A DNA stretch of 64,000 nucleotides from Acidobacteriota bacterium (GTDB lineage: Bacteria > Acidobacteriota > Thermoanaerobaculia > Multivoradales > UBA5704), in contig JBDTZG010000012.1 of NCBI GenBank assembly GCA_040005235.1, forward strand, positions 32,001 through 96,000, given 5' to 3'. Below, one piece after another: positions 4,743-39,248 of this stretch. Below the pieces are notes generated by a model that was not told the origin of the DNA, searched no databases, and saw only the letters and a list, made by a program, of their open reading frames with translations. Within the stretch, counting starts at the first letter, position 1, and every line of letters begins with the position of its first letter. Both the position numbers and the translations under genes were made by a program.

Positions 4743-5720
4743 TCAGCCGAGCAGAGCGTTGGCGAACGCGCGCGGCTCGAAGTCGATCAGGTCGTCCGCC
4801 TTTTCGCCCACCCCGAGGAACAGCACCGGAAGCTTGAGCTCGCGCGCGATCGCGACCGCCATTCCCCCCTTGGCCGTGCCGTCGAGCTTCGCGAGCAGGA
4901 CGCCGTCGACCGGCACGACCTGGGCGAACGTCCGCGCCTGGACCAGCGCGTTCTGGCCGGTCGTGGCGTCGAGCACTAGGATCGTCTCGCGCGGCCAGCC
5001 GGCGGCCTCGCGGTCGATGATCCGGTTGATCTTGGACAGCTCGGCCATCAGGTGATCCTTGGTGTGCAACCGACCGGCGGTGTCGACGATCAGCCGGGTC
5101 ACCCCCCGGGCGCGCGCCGCCTGGATTGCGTCGTAGACCACGGCGGCCGGATCGGCGCCGGTCGCCTGGCGGATCACGTCCACCCCCAGCCGCTCGCCCC
5201 AGAGCGCCAGCTGCTCTATCGCCGCAGCCCGGAACGTATCGGCCGCCGCGAGCAGAACACGCTCCCCCTGGTCCTTCGAGCGCCGCGCGAGCTTGGCGAT
5301 CGAGGTGGTCTTGCCGACGCCGTTCACCCCCACCACCAGAGTCACCCGCGGCCCGTCGCCGATCGGTTTCTTCTTCGGTGCCTGTTCGAGCAGCCGGGCG
5401 ACCTCTTCGGCCAGCCGGGAACGGAGAGCCTGCGGGTCGGTCGTGTCGGTGGTCTTGCGGAGCATCTCGACCAGCTCCAGCGAGGTTTCGACCCCGAGGT
5501 CGGCGGAAATCAGCGCCTCTTCGAGGTAATCGAGCGTCGTGGCGTCGAGCACCGCGCGGCCGGCGACGGCGGCGCCCACCCGTTCGATGATCTCGGTGTG
5601 GGTCATCAACAGCCCGCGCTTCAGCTTGGTCCAGAATCCCGCCCTCTTCGCGGCGTCGGGATCGGGAACCTGGGCTTCGGGCGCGAGCGCAAGGTCGATC
5701 GGAGGTTTCGTTTCCATCAT
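4743..5720 (-). CDS. ftsY: SRP receptor FtsY
   Basis: [39 protein letters not shown]; start placed at ATG 5720 (or 5717). Confidence 0.95.
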
Positions 5721-29584: not shown

Positions 29585-29709
29585 AGCGAGGCCACCTCGC
29601 AAGAGTGCGACTTTCTCCCCTCGATCTGAAGAATGAACCTCGTCGTACTTTCTCGATCCAGCTTCACCAGAGAGAGCCGGTCCTTTACGTCCGGTCGGAG
29701 GGGCTCCGC

Positions 29710-30696
29710 ATGAATCTCAGACTTCGAGTCGCGTTCATCACCCTGGTCGCCGCCCTATGGCTCGGCGGTGCCGCCGGTGCTCTGGGCTTCGCCCTGATCC
29801 CGGGACACTCCCCCGAGACCCCCGCCCCTCCGACCGCTCCGGCATCCACCGCCACCTCCGCGCCCGCCGTTCCGGTATCTTCCGGATACGCCGGCAGCGA
29901 GGCGTGCGTCGGCTGCCATGGCGACCAGGCCGATCATCTGGCCAATACCCCGCACGGCCGCGCGGGATTCGCCAAGCTCTCGTCGCTCGGCTGCGAGACC
30001 TGCCACGGGCCGGGCAACGCCCACGCGGAAACGCCGGACGATCCCGCCCTGTATCCCAAGCTTGAGAACCTGACGGCGGCCAAGGCCTCCGCCGTCTGCC
30101 AGGGCTGCCACTCGGGGGGCAAGCAGTTCTTCTGGCACAACGGCCGCCACGAGGCGCGCGGCCTGTCGTGCATCACCTGCCACAGCGTCCATTCTCCCAA
30201 GTCGGAGCATGCGCAGCTCAAGCAGGAGTCGGTCACCGAGCAGTGCTTCTCCTGCCACAAGGACGTGCGCGCCGACACCTGGAAGACCTCGCACCATCCG
30301 ATCCGCGAGGGCAAGATCTCCTGCGCCGACTGCCACAACCCGCACGGCACGCAGACCCCGAAGATGATCGAAGCGGCCTCGGTCAACGAGCAGTGCTACA
30401 GCTGCCACACCGAAAAGCGCGGTCCGTTTCTTTGGGAGCACCCGCCGGTCCGCGAGAACTGCCTGAACTGCCATTCGCCGCACGGATCCAACCACCTGAA
30501 GCTGCAGAAGACCTCGGTGCCGTTCCTCTGCCAGCAGTGCCACGCCAACACGCGGCATCCCGGCACGCTCTACGACGCCACCACGCTGGCCGACGGCGCG
30601 CGGGCGAGCAACCGAATCTTCAATCGTGCCTGTCTCGACTGCCACGCCTCGATCCATGGCAGCAACCATCCGTCGAGCCCGTACCTTGGCCATTGA
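29710..30696 (+). CDS. DmsE/MtrA/MtoA-family decaheme cytochrome c
   Basis: Ten CxxCH motifs; CHNPHG, EKRGPFLWEHPPVRENC. Confidence 0.93.
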   Translation: MNLRLRVAFITLVAALWLGGAAGALGFALIPGHSPETPAPPTAPASTATSAPAVPVSSGYAGSEACVGCHGDQADHLANTPHGRAGFAKLSSLGCETCHGPGNAHAETPDDPALYPKLENLTAAKASAVCQGCHSGGKQFFWHNGRHEARGLSCITCHSVHSPKSEHAQLKQESVTEQCFSCHKDVRADTWKTSHHPIREGKISCADCHNPHGTQTPKMIEAASVNEQCYSCHTEKRGPFLWEHPPVRENCLNCHSPHGSNHLKLQKTSVPFLCQQCHANTRHPGTLYDATTLADGARASNRIFNRACLDCHASIHGSNHPSSPYLGH

Positions 30697-30721
30697 TCCG
30701 CATGCAACCCGGAGCGAGAAG

Positions 30722-33013
30722 ATGAGAACTCAAAAAACCGTCTCCCTTCCGATCCTGACGCTGGTGCTTCTGCTGGCGCCGCTCGGCTCCTCGTTCGCCG
30801 CCGACCCCGCTGCGGTCGCGAGCGGAGGCTCGGGCCAAGGACCGTTCACCTTCCACCTCGACCCCGTGGCGATCGAGTGGCTTTCCCTCGATCAGGACAC
30901 GAGCTCCTCGAAGTTCCAGGAGTACCGGGACCTCGACAACGGATTCCGCATCCCGCTGCTCAAGCTCTGGGGCGCGAGCGCGGACGGCAACCGTACGCTC
31001 GACTTTTCGGCCCAGAACGTCTGGCGCGACGACGCCCGGCTCGAGCTCGACTACGCCCAGGCCGGCAAGTACGGCCTTAGCCTGTCGTACGACAAGATTC
31101 CCCACCGCTTCGGCAACGACGCGAGCTTCCTCTGGACCCGCACGGGCGCCGGACGGTTCGAGATCGACGACGCGGTCCAGCGGGCGAACCAGGCGGCGAT
31201 CACCGCTCAGTTCGCGGCGAACAAGGCTCTGGTCGCCTTCCCCTTTCTGAACAATCTGATCTCGCCGCAGATCGCGGCGGCCAAGAAGATCGACATCTCG
31301 CTCGAACGCGAACGGACCCGGCTCGACTTCGACCTCGGTACGCTCAAGGGTCTCTCTTGGGACGTCTCGCTGTTCAACGAGAAACGGACCGGCTTGCGCC
31401 CGTACGGCGCCTCGTTCGGCTTCAGCAACGCGACCGAGATCGTCGAGCCGATCGACTACGACACCTCCGAGGTGACGGCGCGCGGCGAATGGGCCGGCAA
31501 GAACGGCGGCCTGGTGTTCGGCTTCCGCTCCTCGCGGTTTGAAAACTCGATCAAGAGCGTCACTTGGGACAACCCGTTCCGCGCCACCGACTCGACCGAT
31601 CCAGGCGCCTATTCCGCCCCCGGCAGCGGTTCGATCAACGGCCCGGCGACCGGCAGGAACGCGCTCGCGCCGGACAACAAGGCGGGCAGCTTCTTCCTCG
31701 ATGGTCGCTGGCGTTTCCCTTCCGGCTGGTGGACCAACGCGAGCGCGAGCAAGACCCGCATGAAGCAGGACGAGGCGCTGCTCGCCTACACCACGAACAC
31801 GGCGATCAACACCCGCGGCGGCGCGCCGTTCGACGCCTCCCTGAGGTCGAATCTGCCGCAGCAGACGGCGGACCGGACGGCCGACGTCACCACCTTCTCG
31901 GCCAACGCCGGGGCTAAGTTCGCCCACAACCTGGGTCTAACGTTCCGGCTGCGTTCTTACGACTACAAGGACGACAGCGACCGGGTGACGATTCCCGGCT
32001 ATGCCCGCTTCGACGCGGCGTGGATCGCCACCGCCCGGATCACCGTTCCGCCGCAGTTCACCCGCACCGATTTCGGCTCCGAGCTGACCTGGGACGTCGT
32101 CCCCTCGACCAGCCTTGGCCTCTCCTGGAACCGCCAGAGCTGGGACCGCAAGCGGCGCGAGGTGGAAAAGACCGACGAGGACGTGTTCAAGCTGACCGCC
32201 GATTCCCGGGCGTGGAAGAACGTTACGCTGCGCGGGGCGGTAGAGCACGGCGACAAGTCGATCGGAAACTACGACGTCGAAGCCGCGGAAGACAGCTTCA
32301 TCGTCTCGGCCGGAGCCACCAACCAGCCCAGTCTGCGGAAGTACGACGAGGCCGCCCGCACCTATGACTCCTGGCGCCTCGGCGCCGATTTCGTGGCGGG
32401 TGACGCCTGGACGTTCACTCTCGCCACCACCGGCCGGAAGGACGACTACGACAAGAGCCTGCTCGGCCTGATCTCGGACGACACGCAGCACCTCGATTTC
32501 GAGCTCGCCTACACTCCGAGCGAGAAGCGGGACGTCTATCTGTTCGGCGACCGCTCGAACCGCAAAACCTTCCAGAAATCGCGCCAGTCGGGGGCGCTCC
32601 CCTCGACCAGCACGCTCGACAACTGGCAGGTCAAGTTCGACGAGATCAACGACGTCTGGGGCCTCGGCTGGAACCAGAAGTACTCCGAAAAGTGGAAGAG
32701 CGCCGTCGAAGGTCGCTGGTCGAAGTCCAACGGCAAAGCCGACATCTTCAGCCCGCCGGGCGGCACGCCGGACATCGCCTTCGGGTTCGACAACTACGAG
32801 GACATCGAGCTGCTGTCGATCTCCGGCAAGCTCGACTTCACCCTCAACTCCCACGTCGGCCTCGGCTTTTGGTACCAGTACGAGGACTACACGATCGACA
32901 GCTTCATCCGCCAGGGCCTCCAGAACTACCTGCCCGGCACGTTGCTCCTGAACGCCAACAACGGCGACTACAACGCGAACCTGTTCGCGGGGTATGTGCG
33001 GTTGAGTTTGTAG
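30722..33013 (+). CDS. MtrB/PioB-family outer-membrane beta-barrel
   Basis: Directly follows the decaheme gene; signal peptide; SKFQEYRD, EPIDYDT, LAPDNKA; ends in an alternating beta-strand. Confidence 0.88.
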   Translation: MRTQKTVSLPILTLVLLLAPLGSSFAADPAAVASGGSGQGPFTFHLDPVAIEWLSLDQDTSSSKFQEYRDLDNGFRIPLLKLWGASADGNRTLDFSAQNVWRDDARLELDYAQAGKYGLSLSYDKIPHRFGNDASFLWTRTGAGRFEIDDAVQRANQAAITAQFAANKALVAFPFLNNLISPQIAAAKKIDISLERERTRLDFDLGTLKGLSWDVSLFNEKRTGLRPYGASFGFSNATEIVEPIDYDTSEVTARGEWAGKNGGLVFGFRSSRFENSIKSVTWDNPFRATDSTDPGAYSAPGSGSINGPATGRNALAPDNKAGSFFLDGRWRFPSGWWTNASASKTRMKQDEALLAYTTNTAINTRGGAPFDASLRSNLPQQTADRTADVTTFSANAGAKFAHNLGLTFRLRSYDYKDDSDRVTIPGYARFDAAWIATARITVPPQFTRTDFGSELTWDVVPSTSLGLSWNRQSWDRKRREVEKTDEDVFKLTADSRAWKNVTLRGAVEHGDKSIGNYDVEAAEDSFIVSAGATNQPSLRKYDEAARTYDSWRLGADFVAGDAWTFTLATTGRKDDYDKSLLGLISDDTQHLDFELAYTPSEKRDVYLFGDRSNRKTFQKSRQSGALPSTSTLDNWQVKFDEINDVWGLGWNQKYSEKWKSAVEGRWSKSNGKADIFSPPGGTPDIAFGFDNYEDIELLSISGKLDFTLNSHVGLGFWYQYEDYTIDSFIRQGLQNYLPGTLLLNANNGDYNANLFAGYVRLSL

Positions 33014-33039
33014 GCTTTTCCCCTTCCCGCCAGAGCCCA

Positions 33040-33067
33040 CCGGGGCGGAGCGATCCGCCCCGGTTTT
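33040..33067 (+). terminator. Rho-independent terminator after the mtrB-like gene
   Basis: CCGGGGCGGA-gcga-TCCGCCCCGG followed by TTTT. Confidence 0.8.
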
Positions 33068-33112
33068 CGTTTGCGGGGAAAATGCGGCCCGACCCGGAAG
33101 GCCGTTGGAGCC

Positions 33113-33162
33113 ATCTTCGCCACCGCGGGTGCGGAGCTGGTGCTCGGCGGTCCCAGGGAAAA
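33113..33162. repeat. REP family A, degenerate copy 4
   Basis: ggtgcggagctggtgctcggcggtcccagggaaaa. Confidence 0.75.
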
Positions 33163-33165
33163 ACT

Positions 33166-34416
33166 TTAGCAGAGCGCGGGGCGCAAGGAGAGCGCGTCGA
33201 CGATCTCCTCGACGTTCAGCTCCGGCACGAACAGCTCGGGCGCCAGGCGCTCGAGGTGAGCTTCGACCAGCGGCAACCCTCCGGGCAGGTCGGGCAGCGT
33301 CTCGCGCGCCTCGGCGCTTGCGGCGTAGCGGAAGTAGGGACAGCCCTCGGGGGTGTTTTCGCGCAGGAGGCGATCGACCAGACCGCCGGTGGCGGGGTTG
33401 ACCCGGCCGACCACTCCTTCGAGGAAGATCATTGCCGTCGGCCCTTCTTCGGCGAATCGGGCGGCTTCTTTCCCCGCTTCCTCCGCCAGACGGCGGGCGG
33501 CGAGCGGATATTTCGGCGCGAACGGCCGGTCGACCGGACCGGCGAGCTGGCGCGCGATCCGCTGCCGCAGATCTTCGAAAGTCCAGCGCTCCGTCCCCTC
33601 GAAGCCGAGCAGGTTGAAGCGGTCTCGGGCGCCCACTCGCACCTTGCCGTGCTCGGAGCGGACGCTGGTCGGCGAGTTGAAATAGTCGCGGCCGGTGAGC
33701 GGATCGGCCACGGGGGGAAAGAAGCCGAACAGCCGGCCGTCGAGATCGCGCCCGCCGTGGGCTGCGCGCTCCGCGACCTCGGACTCGACCCGGGCGGCAA
33801 AGCCGGGATCGCCGAGCCAGGCAGAGGGCTCTGCGGCGACGGGGGTGAGCACTGCGATCGAGGCCATCGAGGCGTTCCACCTCGCGAGCGTCCGGCGTGC
33901 CACCGTTTCTTCGAGGTCGAGTACCCGGCCTCCCCGATGTGCGGCGAGCAACTCGCGCCACTCGTCGAGCCGGGCGAGATCGACCGCCGGGTGGGCCGCG
34001 AGGCGAACCGCAGCGAGCGCGGACTCGTTTTCGTCCCCTACGGTTCCGGCGAGGGCGGCGAAGAAAAGCTCGGACGCGACCGGGCAGCCGGCCCGCGCGT
34101 CGTCCGCTTTGAGCGCGTAGGGAAGCCAACGCTCGCGCAGCTCCGCGATCGCGTCGCGCCGGGCCGCTCGGCGGTCGGGCGCGAGGCGGATCGCGCGGCG
34201 GATCGCGGCCAGCTCGTCGTCCGAGCGGTGATAGAGAGCGCTGTACTCCTCGACCGACTGGCCGGCGTCGATCACCAGCCGGACGTGCGGCTCGACCCCC
34301 GACGCCGCGAGCCGGGAGGCGAGGTACCCCGCCTGGGTCAGATTGAGGCCGGCGTCCTCCCGCAAATGGATCGCCTGGCCGCGGGCTTCGACGACGAGCA
34401 GCGCGCGCCGGGTCAC
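33166..34416 (-). CDS. Unknown 416-aa protein, possibly with a Rossmann/HUP-like N-terminus
   Basis: GTG start overlaps the upstream stop (GTGA); long globular-looking ORF with no recognised family. Confidence 0.7.
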   Translation of the reverse strand: MTRRALLVVEARGQAIHLREDAGLNLTQAGYLASRLAASGVEPHVRLVIDAGQSVEEYSALYHRSDDELAAIRRAIRLAPDRRAARRDAIAELRERWLPYALKADDARAGCPVASELFFAALAGTVGDENESALAAVRLAAHPAVDLARLDEWRELLAAHRGGRVLDLEETVARRTLARWNASMASIAVLTPVAAEPSAWLGDPGFAARVESEVAERAAHGGRDLDGRLFGFFPPVADPLTGRDYFNSPTSVRSEHGKVRVGARDRFNLLGFEGTERWTFEDLRQRIARQLAGPVDRPFAPKYPLAARRLAEEAGKEAARFAEEGPTAMIFLEGVVGRVNPATGGLVDRLLRENTPEGCPYFRYAASAEARETLPDLPGGLPLVEAHLERLAPELFVPELNVEEIVDALSLRPALC

Positions 34417-35021
34417 GGAGTTTGCGCCCGCTCCGGGTCCAGCTCGGGCGCTTCGACCATCCGGATCAGCCGCTCGCCTTCGATTTCGATTTCGCCTTCC
34501 AGGCGGAAATAACGGCAGGGCCGGCCGGCGGCTTCGTCGTAGTAGGGCGAGAACAGATCGACGAAGGCGGTGTCTTCGAACGCCCGAAGATGGTGGAGGT
34601 TGCCATCGCGCGGCTTGAGGATGTCGCAGCGATCGGCGGCTCCCACCGTCCGCTCCGGGCGGGCTCTCGCGAGGCCGGGAGAGTTGGGAACCCAATCGTA
34701 AGAGCGGATCTCCAGGCAGCCGGCGAGCACTCGCAGCATCACCGTCATCTCGGGATGATCATGGAGCGGCAACTCGCGGCCGGCCGGGACGAGGAAGAGG
34801 GTCGCGTGAAGGTCGGGGCGCTCGAACAGCGGTCGCTCGATCCACCGCGCGGTGCGGTCGAGGGCCGCAAGATCGACTTCCAGATCGGCGCAGGTTAGGG
34901 ATTCGAGCGCTGCCGCGAGGGCCGACAGATCGGGCGCGCGGGCCGACCCGAGCGTTCCGAGCATTCCGGTGGAAAACTCTCGCTCCGAAAGGTCGGCCAG
35001 GCGGCACAGCTTGGCATGCAT
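34413..35021 (-). CDS. PCO/ADO-family thiol dioxygenase (cupin)
   Basis: LPLHDHPEMT..RVLAG..IRSYDW, LKPRDGNLH, AFVDLFSPYY, GRPCRYF. Confidence 0.85.
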   Translation of the reverse strand: MHAKLCRLADLSEREFSTGMLGTLGSARAPDLSALAAALESLTCADLEVDLAALDRTARWIERPLFERPDLHATLFLVPAGRELPLHDHPEMTVMLRVLAGCLEIRSYDWVPNSPGLARARPERTVGAADRCDILKPRDGNLHHLRAFEDTAFVDLFSPYYDEAAGRPCRYFRLEGEIEIEGERLIRMVEAPELDPERAQTP

Positions 35022-35068
35022 GACGAATAGAATATCGCTGAAACCTGCCGACCACCGAGCCGATCGCC

Positions 35069-36289
35069 ATGGACGTCCTTGTGCTTCTCCCCGACGCCTT
35101 CGATCGAGCCTCGTTTTCCGCCGTGCCGGGGCACCGCTTCCGATTCGTCGAGACCGAGCGCGCGATTGACCATTGGCGGCCGACCGGGTTCGATCCTCTC
35201 GCCTATCTCGATCGGGCTCGCGCCGCGGCGCGCGAGGGGCCGGTCGATGCGGTCGTTTCGACCCACGATTTGGGCGACTACCTCGCGGCGCTCCTGGCTC
35301 GCGAGCTGGGGCTGCCGGGACCGTCGCCCGAGGCGGTGTTCCTCGGCCTGCACAAGTACTACGGCCGGCGGGCGGAGCGGCAGGCCGGGTTCGCCTCGCT
35401 TCGGTGCGAGGCGCTCAATCTCGAAGAGCCCTGCCCGCGGGCGTTCGGGTATCCCTGTTTCCTGAAGGCGCCGTTCTTGAAGCTCGGACTGCTTGGGTTT
35501 AGGCTCGACGGACCGGAGGATCTGGCGCGCGCTTGGGGCATCGCGCAGCGGGAGCTGCCCGCCTGGTGCCGCCAGTACCTACCGCTGTTCCAAGCCAACG
35601 TCGATCTAGATCGCTACCCTCTCGCCGGGCGCGAGATCATGCTGCTCGAAGAGCTCAAGGACGGGCCGCAGGTGACCGTCGAAGGCTGGATGCACGAGGG
35701 CCGGTTTCACCTCTGGGCGATCACCGACACCAACGTCTTTCCCGGCTCGCGGGCGATCGACAATTTCTCCCTCCCCTCCCGCCTGCCGGCGGCGGCCCAG
35801 GCGAGTTTGGCGGAGGCCGCGGAGCGCGCGGTCCGGTCGATCGGCTTCGACGGCGGGTTCGCGAACGTCGAGCTCTGGTGGCAGGACGGAAAGGCGGTTC
35901 CGATCGAGGTGAACGCCCGGGCGGCGGCGAGCTTTTCGATCCTGTACGAACGGTGCCTTCAGACGTCGCACTGGGCGGCGATCGTCGAAGTGGCGGGCGG
36001 TGGTATGCCTTCGGCGCTTCCCCGGCCCGACGGCACGGTCGGCGGCCAGTTCAACCTGATCACGTTCGCCGAAGGGCGCGTGGGCGACCTGCTGGATCTC
36101 GGCGCCGCCCGCGAGGTGGCGGGAATTTCGCTCGACCGTTCGGCCGACGAGGTCGTCCGGCCGGTGAGCGAGTTCGGCGTCGTCCTCGCCCAGGTCGAGC
36201 TGTTCGGCGGAAGCTACGAGGAGATCCACGCCGAGGCGACCCGGATTCGGCGCCGGCTGTTGAAGCGGCCGGAGAATTCGCCGGGGTGA
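35069..36289 (+). CDS. ATP-grasp domain enzyme
   Basis: ARELGLPGP, HKYYGR, YPCFLKAP, LLEELKDGPQVTVEG, NVELW, IEVNAR. Confidence 0.85.
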   Translation: MDVLVLLPDAFDRASFSAVPGHRFRFVETERAIDHWRPTGFDPLAYLDRARAAAREGPVDAVVSTHDLGDYLAALLARELGLPGPSPEAVFLGLHKYYGRRAERQAGFASLRCEALNLEEPCPRAFGYPCFLKAPFLKLGLLGFRLDGPEDLARAWGIAQRELPAWCRQYLPLFQANVDLDRYPLAGREIMLLEELKDGPQVTVEGWMHEGRFHLWAITDTNVFPGSRAIDNFSLPSRLPAAAQASLAEAAERAVRSIGFDGGFANVELWWQDGKAVPIEVNARAAASFSILYERCLQTSHWAAIVEVAGGGMPSALPRPDGTVGGQFNLITFAEGRVGDLLDLGAAREVAGISLDRSADEVVRPVSEFGVVLAQVELFGGSYEEIHAEATRIRRRLLKRPENSPG

Positions 36290-36353
36290 CCTTTCGGACT
36301 ACAATCCACAACTCGCGCTCGGTTCTATTTTGCACCGGGCGCCGGAGGTTCCT

Positions 36354-39248
36354 ATGAACGGTCGCCGTCGCTCCTTGCTCGCTCTCCTCGTTCTGATCGG
36401 CGCTCTTCAGCTCGCCACCCCTGCCGCGCACGGCATCGATCATGCCGTCCAGGTGGGTCCCGGCACCACCTTCTCGCCGCAGTTCTTGGACATCACGGCC
36501 GGCGACACCGTGACCTGGACGAGCGCAGGGGGTTTCCACAATGTCGTCGCGGACAACGGGACCTTCCGCTGTTCGAACGGCTGCGATGGCGAGGGGGGCG
36601 ACGGCAGTCCCTCCGCCGCCGGCTGGAGCTTCACCCGGACCTACCCCGCCAACGGCATCTACGGCTATCACTGCGAGGTCCATGGATCACCCGGCAGCGG
36701 CATGTACGGGACGGTTACGGTGCATGGCGTGACTCCTCCGGGAACGATCCAGTTCGCTTCCACCGCTTTCACGGTCGGCGAAGAGGAGCCCTCGGTCTAT
36801 TTCACGATTTCGCGAACCGGCGGCAGCGACGGCGAGGTCTCGGTCGTGATCAACACCAGCAATGGGACGGCCACAGCCGGACAGGATTACACGCCTTTGA
36901 ACAACGTCATGCTGGTCTGGGGCCCCGGCGAAAGCGGGATCAAAACCTTTGGGATACCGATCACCGACGACATACTGAACGAGCCGACCGAGACATTTTT
37001 TCTCAGCCTCTCCGATCCCCAAGGCGGCACCACCATCAGCAATCCGTCCACCGCCACCGTGACGATTCACGACAACGACGCGCCGGCTTCGCCCGGCACC
37101 ATCGCTTTTACGGGAAGCTCGTTCTCCGGGCCGGAAGGCGGGGACGCCACCATTTCGATCTCTCGCACCGGCGGCACCACCGGGCCGGTCTCGGTTTCGT
37201 ACGCGACGAGCAACGGCACCGCCGTCGCCGGTTCGGACTACACCGCGGCGGCGGGCACGGTGAGCTTTGCCGACGGTCAAGGGGGACCGAGGACCATCCC
37301 GATCTCCTTGCTCGCCGACGACGCGTTCGAAGGGAGCGAAAACTTCACAGTCGCCCTCTCAGGCCCGACCGGCGGCGCCTCTCTGGGCAGCCCGACGAAC
37401 GCGAGCGTGACGATCTTGGACGACGACTCTCCCCCGCCCACGGGCGACACCTTTACGGATGCCGAAGTCGCCTGTGACGCCGCGCGCCTCACCGGCCTCC
37501 TCGCGCGGACCACGGCGACGCCGAGGGCGGCGGCCAAGCTCACGAACCTCAATGTCTCGTTCACCGGGACGGGGGATTTCGCCGGCATCGCCACCGAAGG
37601 CACCGGCCCGCAGACGGTTGAAAAGGCGCTCGCGTTTTCGTCCAATCCGGAGGAGACCACCTTCCTCCGGAACCCCGTGCGGCCGCAGCTCTTCTCGGTG
37701 AGCCTGACCCGCAACGACCTCAACTCCGACCTGGTCGCCGCCGCTACCGATCCGGAGGCGATTCGCCTGGCGATCAATCCGACGCTCGACGTGCATCCCC
37801 CGGTCGGAAACCTACTCGCGATCGACAGCGTTTCGGGCGCTGCCGGAAAGATCGCCGACGCCAAGCCGGGCCGCGGCCTCGCGCCGCTTCTGGCGCCTTG
37901 CCATCGGCGCTTCTCCGATCGCGACGTCCACCTGTTCCGGGTACTCGCGAAGATGGCGCGAGCCGAGCTGTCGGGAGCGCCGAGGACCGAGATCGCGATC
38001 TATCGCGGAACGGAGACCGACAGCTACCGCCTGGATGCTTTCCCCTACAAAGCCAACGGCGCGAGCCTGGGCCGGCTCTCGGCGACGCTCGACGCGACGT
38101 TTACCGCCGCGGGTGCGCTCGATCAAGGGACGCTACGCATTCTGCCCCGCTGCACGGAGGGCCAGACGAGCGATTGCACGGACGTGGTGGGAGCCGCCGC
38201 TCTCGCGCTTTACCGGCCGGAGACCTCGGGAACGCCGTCCACGACTTTCGTGCGCCTCGAAAGCGGCGTCGCCGAGTTCGAATGGGACAACCTGCTCCAA
38301 GGCACCACCTGGGAAAAGCCACTGGCCGGCGTGTTTTTCCCGGCGCTTCGAGCTTCGGCCGCGCTCACCCCCACCGAAACCCTGTGCGATGAGAACCGGC
38401 TCGCCGGACTGCTCGCCAAGTCGACCGCGCTGGCCGCGCGCAACGCGAAGACTTCGAATCTCGCGGTTTCGTTCACCGCAACCGGCGATTTCGCCGGTAT
38501 CGCGACCTCGGGCAACGGTCCTGGCACGCCGGAGGCGGCGCTCGCGTTCTCCTCGAATCCGGAAGAGACGACGCTGCTGCGCAACCCGGCCCGGCCGCAG
38601 CTCTTCTCGGTGAGCGTGACCCGGAACGATCTCAACTCCGACCTCGTGGCCTCCGGCAACGCCGACGAGCTGCGCCTCTCGATCATCCCGACGCTCGACG
38701 CCAACCCGCACGCCGGCAACCTGCTCTCGATCGACAACTTGGCGGCTCCTGCCGGCCGGCCGGCCGATGCCAAGCCGGGGCGCGGCCTCGCTCCCCTGCT
38801 GAACCCTTGCCACGACGATTTCAGCGAAGCGGACGTCCACGTCTTCCGAGTGCTCGAAAAAGTCGTGCGCGGCGAATACGCGGGGGGCAAAAGTGTCGAG
38901 ATCGCGATCTATCGCGGCGAGGCTTCCGACACCTACCGGATCGACGCGGTGCCGATCGGCGCCGACGGCCTCGGTCGCGGTCGGCTTTCGGCGCTGCTCG
39001 AGCTCCTTTTCACCCCCGCGGGCGACCTCGCGACCGGACGCCTCACCCTCCTTCCCCGTTGCGCCGCGGGAGAGACCACCGGTTGCACGGACGTGGTCGG
39101 AACGACGGCTCTCGCCCTGTTCAAACCGGTCCTACCGGGGGCGTTTCCACCGCCGACAACCTATCGGGTTTCGACCGCAGGACCGGCGAGCGTGACGATC
39201 GATTTCGCGGATCTGCTCGCCGGTACGTCCTGGCGGCGACCGTTGTAG
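36354..39248 (+). CDS. Secreted cupredoxin + two Calx-beta domains + duplicated unknown domain
   Basis: HNVV...YHCEVHGSPGSGM type-1 Cu ligands; NGTATAGQDY / NGTAVAGSDY Calx-beta; two homologous ~290-aa C-terminal repeats. Confidence 0.85.
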   Translation: MNGRRRSLLALLVLIGALQLATPAAHGIDHAVQVGPGTTFSPQFLDITAGDTVTWTSAGGFHNVVADNGTFRCSNGCDGEGGDGSPSAAGWSFTRTYPANGIYGYHCEVHGSPGSGMYGTVTVHGVTPPGTIQFASTAFTVGEEEPSVYFTISRTGGSDGEVSVVINTSNGTATAGQDYTPLNNVMLVWGPGESGIKTFGIPITDDILNEPTETFFLSLSDPQGGTTISNPSTATVTIHDNDAPASPGTIAFTGSSFSGPEGGDATISISRTGGTTGPVSVSYATSNGTAVAGSDYTAAAGTVSFADGQGGPRTIPISLLADDAFEGSENFTVALSGPTGGASLGSPTNASVTILDDDSPPPTGDTFTDAEVACDAARLTGLLARTTATPRAAAKLTNLNVSFTGTGDFAGIATEGTGPQTVEKALAFSSNPEETTFLRNPVRPQLFSVSLTRNDLNSDLVAAATDPEAIRLAINPTLDVHPPVGNLLAIDSVSGAAGKIADAKPGRGLAPLLAPCHRRFSDRDVHLFRVLAKMARAELSGAPRTEIAIYRGTETDSYRLDAFPYKANGASLGRLSATLDATFTAAGALDQGTLRILPRCTEGQTSDCTDVVGAAALALYRPETSGTPSTTFVRLESGVAEFEWDNLLQGTTWEKPLAGVFFPALRASAALTPTETLCDENRLAGLLAKSTALAARNAKTSNLAVSFTATGDFAGIATSGNGPGTPEAALAFSSNPEETTLLRNPARPQLFSVSVTRNDLNSDLVASGNADELRLSIIPTLDANPHAGNLLSIDNLAAPAGRPADAKPGRGLAPLLNPCHDDFSEADVHVFRVLEKVVRGEYAGGKSVEIAIYRGEASDTYRIDAVPIGADGLGRGRLSALLELLFTPAGDLATGRLTLLPRCAAGETTGCTDVVGTTALALFKPVLPGAFPPPTTYRVSTAGPASVTIDFADLLAGTSWRRPL

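Follow-up and report, generated by a model that had tools for sequence, protein, structure and literature searches.

A 64,000-nt stretch of DNA from an Acidobacteriota bacterium (UBA5704; GCA_040005235.1, contig JBDTZG010000012.1), hereafter the window and the basis of all coordinates unless a locus or genome is named, harbors a compact three-gene module. It encodes a 202-aa cupin of the PCO/ADO thiol dioxygenase type, a 406-aa ATP-grasp ligase and a 416-aa protein, X416, that matches no Pfam or NCBIfam family. The module is genuine and is tightly conserved in some Thermoanaerobaculia. We give an even chance to the reading that it serves as a cassette for the synthesis of a small cysteine amide or peptide whose free-amine cysteine is oxidized to the sulfinate.

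The conservation of the module was assessed in two sets of genomes. A pattern scan with one genome per species yielded 29 loci encoding an X416 relative, in which the neighbors were detected by tblastn with the window proteins; the sources named for the homologues are Thermoanaerobaculia or Acidobacteriota. In 26 of the 29 loci, and so in 26 of 27 genomes, the ATP-grasp, dioxygenase and X416 genes are next to one another. The remaining three loci (L009, L013, and L026) start inside X416, their upstream DNA being missing, and two of them belong, as second halves, to genomes that L029 and L028 had already brought into the count. Neither divergence of X416 to as little as 36% identity nor inversion of the ATP-grasp gene has broken this linkage. 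The ATP-grasp gene lies upstream on the same strand in 18 of the 26 loci, giving an operon in the order ATP-grasp, dioxygenase, X416, and is divergent, as in the window, in the other 8. Intergenic distances within the module are 0–38 nt, or the genes overlap. The second set was a sample of 151 genomes drawn evenly from the class. X416, strong PCO_ADO matches (E ≤ 1e-20) and ATP-grasp orthologues (E ≤ 1e-209) are found there in one and the same set of 11 genomes, and their coordinates adjoin. An earlier note on this DNA had set separation of the three genes in other genomes as one finding that would refute its interpretation; both sets show them together. The distribution is patchy, since the module was not found in a genome of the same genus (G205, 98% complete) nor in two of the same family (G117 and G149). 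In the genome of origin itself (G000; 6.2 Mb in 140 contigs, rated 100% complete) the PCO_ADO dioxygenase is present in a single copy. Weaker PCO_ADO-like cupins (E 1.6e-8 to 8.7e-6, about 27–35 bits) occur without X416 in 20 other genomes (family f4) of the class sample, one of them (G191) flagged as unpublished; an example is G115:C124:64068-64466, and some lie in open frames of 660–738 aa.

The dioxygenase and X416 appear to be coupled at the level of translation. The dioxygenase gene ends in CAA ACT CCG TGA, and the GTG start of X416 (34416-34414) overlaps the stop TGA (34415-34413) within the tetranucleotide GTGA, just as the earlier note had described. The longest open reading frame (ORF) for X416 would begin at TTG 34695 and give a 509-aa protein; this form is not supported. 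The orthologues measure 398–430 aa, and their alignment begins at residue 1 of the 416-aa product, so the GTG is the right start. A start codon that allows the same 4-nt stop/start overlap is present in 20 of the 24 loci in which both genes are whole, the exceptions being L003 (+31 nt), L004 (+25 nt), L018 (-14 or +4) and L014 (no start codon in the scanned range). In one lineage the two proteins are joined: P0031 (611 aa) is a single chain with a PCO_ADO domain (residues 59–170, E 1.5e-27) followed by X416 (189–589). Its 90% cluster has 9 members of 610–611 aa; as they lie on separate contigs, a single assembly error does not account for the fusion. Given the translational coupling and the fusion, the dioxygenase and X416 probably catalyze successive steps and may form a complex. 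A complex prediction for the two proteins, run without controls, returned a score of 0.00 and is evidence neither way.

The dioxygenase belongs, by its sequence, to the PCO/ADO family and carries the full signature. PCO/ADO enzymes are the oxygen sensors of plants and animals. The match to PF07847 (PCO_ADO; E 3.1e-28) reaches 99 bits against a cut-off of 27, in agreement with the earlier family assignment, and among PDB sequences plant PCO2 (7cxz, E 5.1e-18), human ADO (7rei, E 3.1e-14), and PCO4/5 are matched. Two sets of residues are invariant in 18 orthologues. H87, H89, and H143, which align with LHNHP and GGNMH of PCO2 (7cxz), are taken to be the iron ligands, as in PCO/ADO structures. 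The C-terminal series D155...P159-x-Y161...R167-x-C169-x-Y171, which aligns with PCO2/PCO5, presumably supplies substrate or cross-link residues. The likeness to PCO1-5 and ADO extends over the family hidden Markov model, the three histidine ligands and the C-terminal D...PY...GRxCxY motif, and the protein is predicted to convert free-amine thiols to sulfinates in an O2-dependent manner. An O2-dependent enzyme is plausible in this host, whose genome encodes two haem-copper oxidases. The next relatives of the dioxygenase beyond its own clade are plant PCOs at 38–44% identity, as found by a word-indexed search that is not exhaustive. In contrast to PCO1-5 and ADO (243–274 aa), the bacterial protein is shorter (202 aa); its gene always accompanies those of two ligase-like enzymes, with one of which it is sometimes fused, and has no linkage to N-degron machinery.

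The ATP-grasp ligase is also well conserved, with 16 orthologues at 52–94% identity in which K133, E194/E195, E268, and E280-x-N282-x-R284 are invariant; these are presumably the ATP/Mg catalytic residues of the fold. Its AlphaFold model (predicted local distance difference test, pLDDT, 89.5) has a predicted three-domain fold closest to the dipeptide-forming L-amino-acid ligases, first BL00235 (3vot, E 2.4e-23, template modeling score 0.77) and then, at about E 1e-20, BacD/YwfE and RizA (3vmm, 4wd3, and 3wo1). Since the model is closest to these ligases, it favors free amino acids or small amines as substrates. Although the closest folds are those of BL00235, BacD/YwfE of bacilysin and RizA, and the putative ATP-grasp catalytic motifs are conserved among the orthologues, sequence identity to these ligases is only 12–17%, and the ligase of the module forms an orthologue group of its own that is confined to the module. 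Matches to PDB sequences are accordingly weak (4dim, E 2.3e-11; 3vot, E 0.0098 with a profile).

X416 has no Pfam or NCBIfam match. An exhaustive search of 1.84 billion representative proteins with its profile gave 25 hits at E ≤ 0.001, of which 13 were at E ≤ 1e-30, and by this count X416 constitutes a very small new family. An alignment of 26 sequences (A1) has 51 invariant columns. The predicted structure is confident (pLDDT 90.6, predicted TM-score 0.91) and consists of a Rossmann-type core with large helical insertions. In an exhaustive comparison with 48,161 chains the top match was BshC (4wbd; Z 11.6, 291 residues aligned, root-mean-square deviation 5.5), the presumed cysteine-adding enzyme of bacillithiol synthesis. 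Only 3 chains reach Z ≥ 8, and class I LysRS scores Z 8.6–9.3. ArgRS, CysRS, MetRS, and MshC follow at Z 6.5–7.6 with more than 210 residues aligned. Overall, the catalytic domains of class I aminoacyl-tRNA synthetases (aaRS) align over 210–258 residues at Z 6.5–9.3, where values below 8 can reflect a merely common arrangement. Foldseek against the PDB was weak (E ≥ 5.6e-3); the BshC match is clear only with the exhaustive aligner. The likeness to BshC, and more distantly and less certainly to MshC and class I aaRS, resides in the Rossmann-type core with inserted helical (connective-peptide) modules, and X416 is therefore modeled as a BshC-fold (BshC/class I aaRS-like) protein that is not itself a BshC. 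The earlier note had listed it as an unknown protein; a fold can now be assigned to it by structural comparison.

The invariant X416 motifs E10-x-R12-G13, D50-x-G-x-S54-x-E56-E57-Y58, and G334...N340..T343-G344 sit right after the strands 3–10, 41–48, and 327–335, and the strand-end edge of a Rossmann-type sheet is the usual nucleotide or substrate site. In the loop after strand 1 (E-A-R-G-Q-A-I-H-L-R-E) only E, R, and G are family-wide. The family is acidic (median isoelectric point 5.6), which gives no support for tRNA binding and is not decisive. The ESM Atlas gave nothing usable for X416 (best feature score 0.79) or for its distant relative P0045 (Atlas model with a pLDDT of 0.38). X416 also has relatives of low GC content (P0045, P0052-54, and P0047) that are homologous over 301 columns (hhalign 99.2%, E 1.5e-19). 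One of these distant homologues is encoded in L057 (37% GC), where its gene is flanked by a MetRS gene (whose product has a B3_4 domain) and, 53 nt further on, a CysRS gene; no PCO_ADO or ATP-grasp gene is found within 7 kb of it. The CysRS gene is followed by genes for a methyltransferase and a metallo-beta-lactamase-fold protein, and the whole array (L057:4525-11122) is on one strand. L057 is a metagenome contig that is possibly archaeal, judging from nearby NurA and TrmB-family genes, which we take to point to such a source. In a second, short locus (L058), which ends inside the gene, the ORF upstream of the homologue is unrelated and 90 aa long. The adjacency to CysRS would be a further pointer to cysteine, in addition to the dioxygenase partner and the BshC-type fold, but, seen in one locus only, it is just a lead.

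Taken together, the module may be a self-contained three-enzyme biosynthetic cassette, independent of nonribosomal peptide synthetases, for a small cysteine amide or peptide. The ATP-grasp enzyme, of the L-amino-acid-ligase type, and X416 would be its two ATP-dependent amide-bond formers. One of them would use the carboxyl group of cysteine to join it to an amino acid (if the ATP-grasp enzyme acts) or to another amine (if X416 does). The joined cysteine would keep its free alpha-amine and its thiol, and thus the shape shared by an N-terminal cysteine, cysteamine and bacillithiol. The PCO/ADO-type Fe(II) dioxygenase would then use O2 to oxidize the thiol to the sulfinate, and the other ligase would extend the molecule. 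The cassette would finally yield a small di- or tripeptide, or a pseudopeptide, of the 3-sulfinoalanyl or hypotaurine-like type. The substrates, the order of the steps and the product are deduced from what is observed in the gene content, conservation, co-occurrence, fusion, fold assignments and active-site motifs.

The earlier note had left two options, and the first, a pathway to a sulfinate-containing amide or small peptide, fits best because the genes are co-localized, the ATP-grasp fold is closest to dipeptide ligases and no precursor, regulator or protease accompanies them; what it says about chemistry is still a prediction. For the last point, ORFs were clustered in two size classes, all those of 80 aa or more and 584 flanking ones of 20–79 aa. 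Among these clustered ORFs no further gene family and no 20–79-aa ORF is common to both clades, and no precursor peptide, regulator, protease or exporter is conserved near the module. Even the biggest families of small ORFs reach no more than 10 loci and fall inside a neighboring cytochrome gene. A cluster of the graspetide type, or for another peptide that is made on the ribosome and modified after translation (RiPP), was rejected: no precursor peptide gene lies beside the ATP-grasp gene, and none of the 584 small ORFs is common to both clades.

Several observations weigh against a biosynthetic cassette of this kind. The organisms that carry the module are known from metagenome-assembled genomes alone. 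No exporter or resistance gene is conserved beside it, and the characterized PCO/ADO enzymes act mainly on protein N-termini, which favors a role there. The Pfam evidence for the ATP-grasp enzyme is borderline for ATP-grasp_4 (27.1 bits against a cut-off of 27) and below the cut-off for ATPgrasp_N (25.6 against 27), although structure comparison upheld the fold that the earlier note had proposed. For X416, the resemblance to BshC is moderate (5.5 Å) and confined to the fold. The profile of the family finds nothing among PDB sequences at E ≤ 10, and the 26-sequence alignment has neither a HIGH nor a KMSKS motif, the signature motifs of class I aaRS. Aligned by hhalign with 17 BshC proteins of Acidobacteriota, X416 reaches a probability of 0.6%. 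The invariant G94-Q95-Q96 (GQQ) of BshC has no counterpart in the X416 alignment. X416 as a true BshC was rejected on this basis, together with the absence of a PF10079 match; in further contrast to BshC it is about 125–175 residues shorter, and the genome of origin carries a genuine bshC elsewhere. Moreover, being BshC-like is no proof of ligase activity, because the ligase activity of BshC itself has never been reconstituted, according to PMC4360819. The same text suggests that the open active site of BshC needs a further partner.

Some probability, though a limited one, goes to the possibility that the cassette processes an existing aminothiol instead of making one. The dioxygenase would then oxidize bacillithiol (Cys-GlcN-malate) or cysteamine in an O2-dependent manner, and X416 and the ATP-grasp enzyme would make, re-ligate or derivatize the thiol or the sulfinate. 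Bacillithiol carries a free amine and a thiol, as do the substrates of ADO and PCO, and BshC is the best structural match of X416. The genome of origin has a canonical bshC (G000:C82, L030:1225-2994; PF10079, E 1.4e-53), directly followed by an LmbE/BshB-like deacetylase frame. Because both are present, this organism probably makes bacillithiol or a derivative of it, as far as gene content can tell. A PF10079 bshC also occurs in 11 of the 11 genomes that bear the module. However, the gene is common anyway: of 61 genomes sampled across the phylum, the unpublished G024 and G049 among those counted, 43 have it, so its presence is not discriminating. Furthermore, the bsh genes lie on another contig, unlinked to the module, and two ATP-dependent ligases are hard to fit into a purely oxidative or turnover route.

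That the cupin performs an oxygenation other than thiol to sulfinate, as do some cysteine-dioxygenase-like cupins of natural-product pathways, so that the product is not a sulfinate, has a low probability. Cupins related to thiol dioxygenases can catalyze other reactions (sulfonamide and sulfamate biosynthesis is the subject of a review, PMC9113183), and the protein is 40–90 residues shorter than plant PCOs and human ADO. Nevertheless, the PF07847 score lies far above its cut-off, and such chemistry appears unlikely because every signature residue of N-terminal-cysteine and cysteamine dioxygenases is invariant.

Equally slight is the probability that the cassette modifies the N-termini of proteins or peptides. 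Here a cysteine would be oxidized and a residue then added by the ATP-grasp enzyme or X416, either as a tRNA-independent analogue of ATE1/Bpt that feeds ClpS or in a RiPP-like maturation. There are ATP-grasp ligases, PGM1 among them, that acylate the N-termini of peptides. The nearest relatives of the dioxygenase outside its clade, in the non-exhaustive search, are plant PCOs, and all well-studied PCO/ADO enzymes oxidize N-terminal cysteines of proteins, as far as the portions of the literature covered here go. ClpS and Aat are encoded in the genome, and no ATE_C or Bpt-type transferase was found in this 100%-complete assembly, so that role stays vacant. On the other hand, the module is unlinked to ClpS and Aat (both on other contigs), to a protease, a regulator or a candidate substrate. 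No small ORF is conserved beside it among the 584 of 20–79 aa, and the closest folds of its ATP-grasp enzyme are ligases of free amino acids. The patchy spread (11 of 151 genomes, missing in a same-genus genome) is typical of accessory metabolism rather than of core proteolysis. The second option of the earlier note, a bacterial analogue of the Cys N-degron, belongs here. Compared with the eukaryotic Cys/Arg N-degron pathway (MetAP, PCO/ADO, ATE1, N-recognin), the module shares the dioxygenase family, and an ATP-dependent ligase could in principle replace ATE1. Its putative ligases are ATP-grasp and aaRS-fold enzymes, not aminoacyl-tRNA transferases; ATE/Bpt transferases have a GNAT-like fold. 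An O2-gated tagging of protein N-terminal cysteines, in which the ATP-grasp enzyme or X416 replaces the ATE1/Bpt step and feeds ClpS-type recognition, is very unlikely and has no positive support: no ATE/Bpt homologue was found in the genome, ClpS and Aat are unlinked, and neither a substrate nor a protease is linked. Were it true, prokaryotes would have their first Cys N-degron oxygen sensor.

As a biosynthetic cassette, the module would have a parallel in clusters in which a non-haem-iron sulfoxide synthase and an ATP-grasp enzyme make 2-thiohistidine dipeptides, as described in PMC13674229. Both are small cassettes that pair an iron-dependent sulfur-tailoring enzyme with an ATP-grasp ligase and lead, or would lead, to a sulfur-amino-acid dipeptide. 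In those clusters, however, the reaction is C-S bond formation on histidine rather than thiol dioxygenation, the iron enzyme is from another family, and no BshC-fold partner is described.

As a kind, the small cassette of ligase and tailoring enzyme is already known. What is new is the combination of enzymes, the bacterial context of a PCO/ADO enzyme and the X416 family. In agreement with the earlier note, which knew of no bacterial system of this composition, none was found by full-text searches of the literature (supplements not opened), nor was a described bacterial PCO/ADO pathway or a characterized bacterial member. The fixed setting of three genes with two ligase-type partners provides a testable hypothesis for the native substrate of the dioxygenase. 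The cassette may also be the sign of a new small metabolite with a sulfinate group in soil Acidobacteriota, which are widespread. As a tractable relative of the BshC fold that in nature also occurs fused to the dioxygenase, X416 could illuminate both itself and BshC, whose mechanism is unsolved.

The earlier note had also proposed a shared control region between the divergent genes. The 47-bp gap is present (Table 1), and the layout on which the proposal depends holds for the 8 divergent loci, including the window, but not for the 18 with a co-directional operon. A -10-like TAGAAT (35028-35033) is conserved in 6 of the 8 divergent loci, and L028 has TACAAT. It lies 35 nt ahead of the ATP-grasp ATG, and its reverse complement 7 nt ahead of the dioxygenase ATG. 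From the sequence, the hexamer could therefore serve both genes as a bidirectional -10 element, in which case the dioxygenase transcript may be leaderless. A scan of the window for sigma-70 sites with two hexamers gave 0 full sites, and Rfam detected no family in the window and 6 loci.

Table 1. Features of the module and its left flank, in window coordinates.
Feature	Coordinates	Strand	Basis
X416 (416-aa protein)	33166..34416	-	GTG start, ORF list and orthologue alignment
Dioxygenase, 202 aa, PCO/ADO-type cupin	34413..35021	-	ORF list, PF07847
Divergent intergenic region, 47 bp	35022..35068		ATG at 35021 and ATG at 35069
ATP-grasp ligase, 406 aa	35069..36289	+	ORF list, structure match
Intrinsic-terminator-like hairpin	33039..33064	+	11-bp stem with 9 G-C pairs, T-rich tail
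Repetitive extragenic palindromic (REP)-like dispersed repeat copy	33100..33165		repeat matches in own genome; boundaries approximate

The genes on either side of the module are less constant than the module itself. To the left, at 29605-33013 (+), lie an MtrA-like decahaem cytochrome (363 aa; Paired_CXXCH, E 3e-35) and an MtrB/PioB outer-membrane porin (PF11854, E 6e-81), which look like an extracellular electron-transfer conduit. As listed, the two ORFs overlap by 71 nt, so the start of MtrB is probably further downstream. In 11 loci (L008, L012, L014, L018, L019, L021-L025, and L027) a gene convergent to X416 encodes a secreted cytochrome (about 900 aa) that has six CXXCH motifs together with an MtrC/MtrF-like domain, for example at L012:7200-9932 on the minus strand. 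This cytochrome has no homologue in the window, where MtrAB occupies that position, and MtrAB recurs only in L001 and L005 among the module loci; both were therefore rejected as parts of the module. The repeated neighborhood of extracellular-electron-transfer cytochromes may be a coincidence or a loose functional link. To the right, 40 nt past the ATP-grasp stop, begins a gene (36330-39248, +) for a secreted 972-aa protein with a cupredoxin domain and two Calx-beta domains, conserved only in the closest relative, L001. It contains an internal duplication of about 300 aa without a known family, residues ~375–667 matching the second half (60% identity in the L001 orthologue).

The left boundary of the module is the intrinsic-terminator-like hairpin, which lies directly 3′ of the MtrB/PioB stop and outside the module itself; the mtrB terminator of the earlier note is thus borne out by an 11-bp stem with a T tail. 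Between this hairpin and the X416 stop lies the REP-like repeat, a fair label in that note, as the genome of origin has 56 matches at E ≤ 0.01, 55 besides the copy itself. The element is about 35–65 bp long, three more copies lie on the window's own contig, and many copies form close inverted pairs, such as G000:C94:5252-5287 with 5312-5343.

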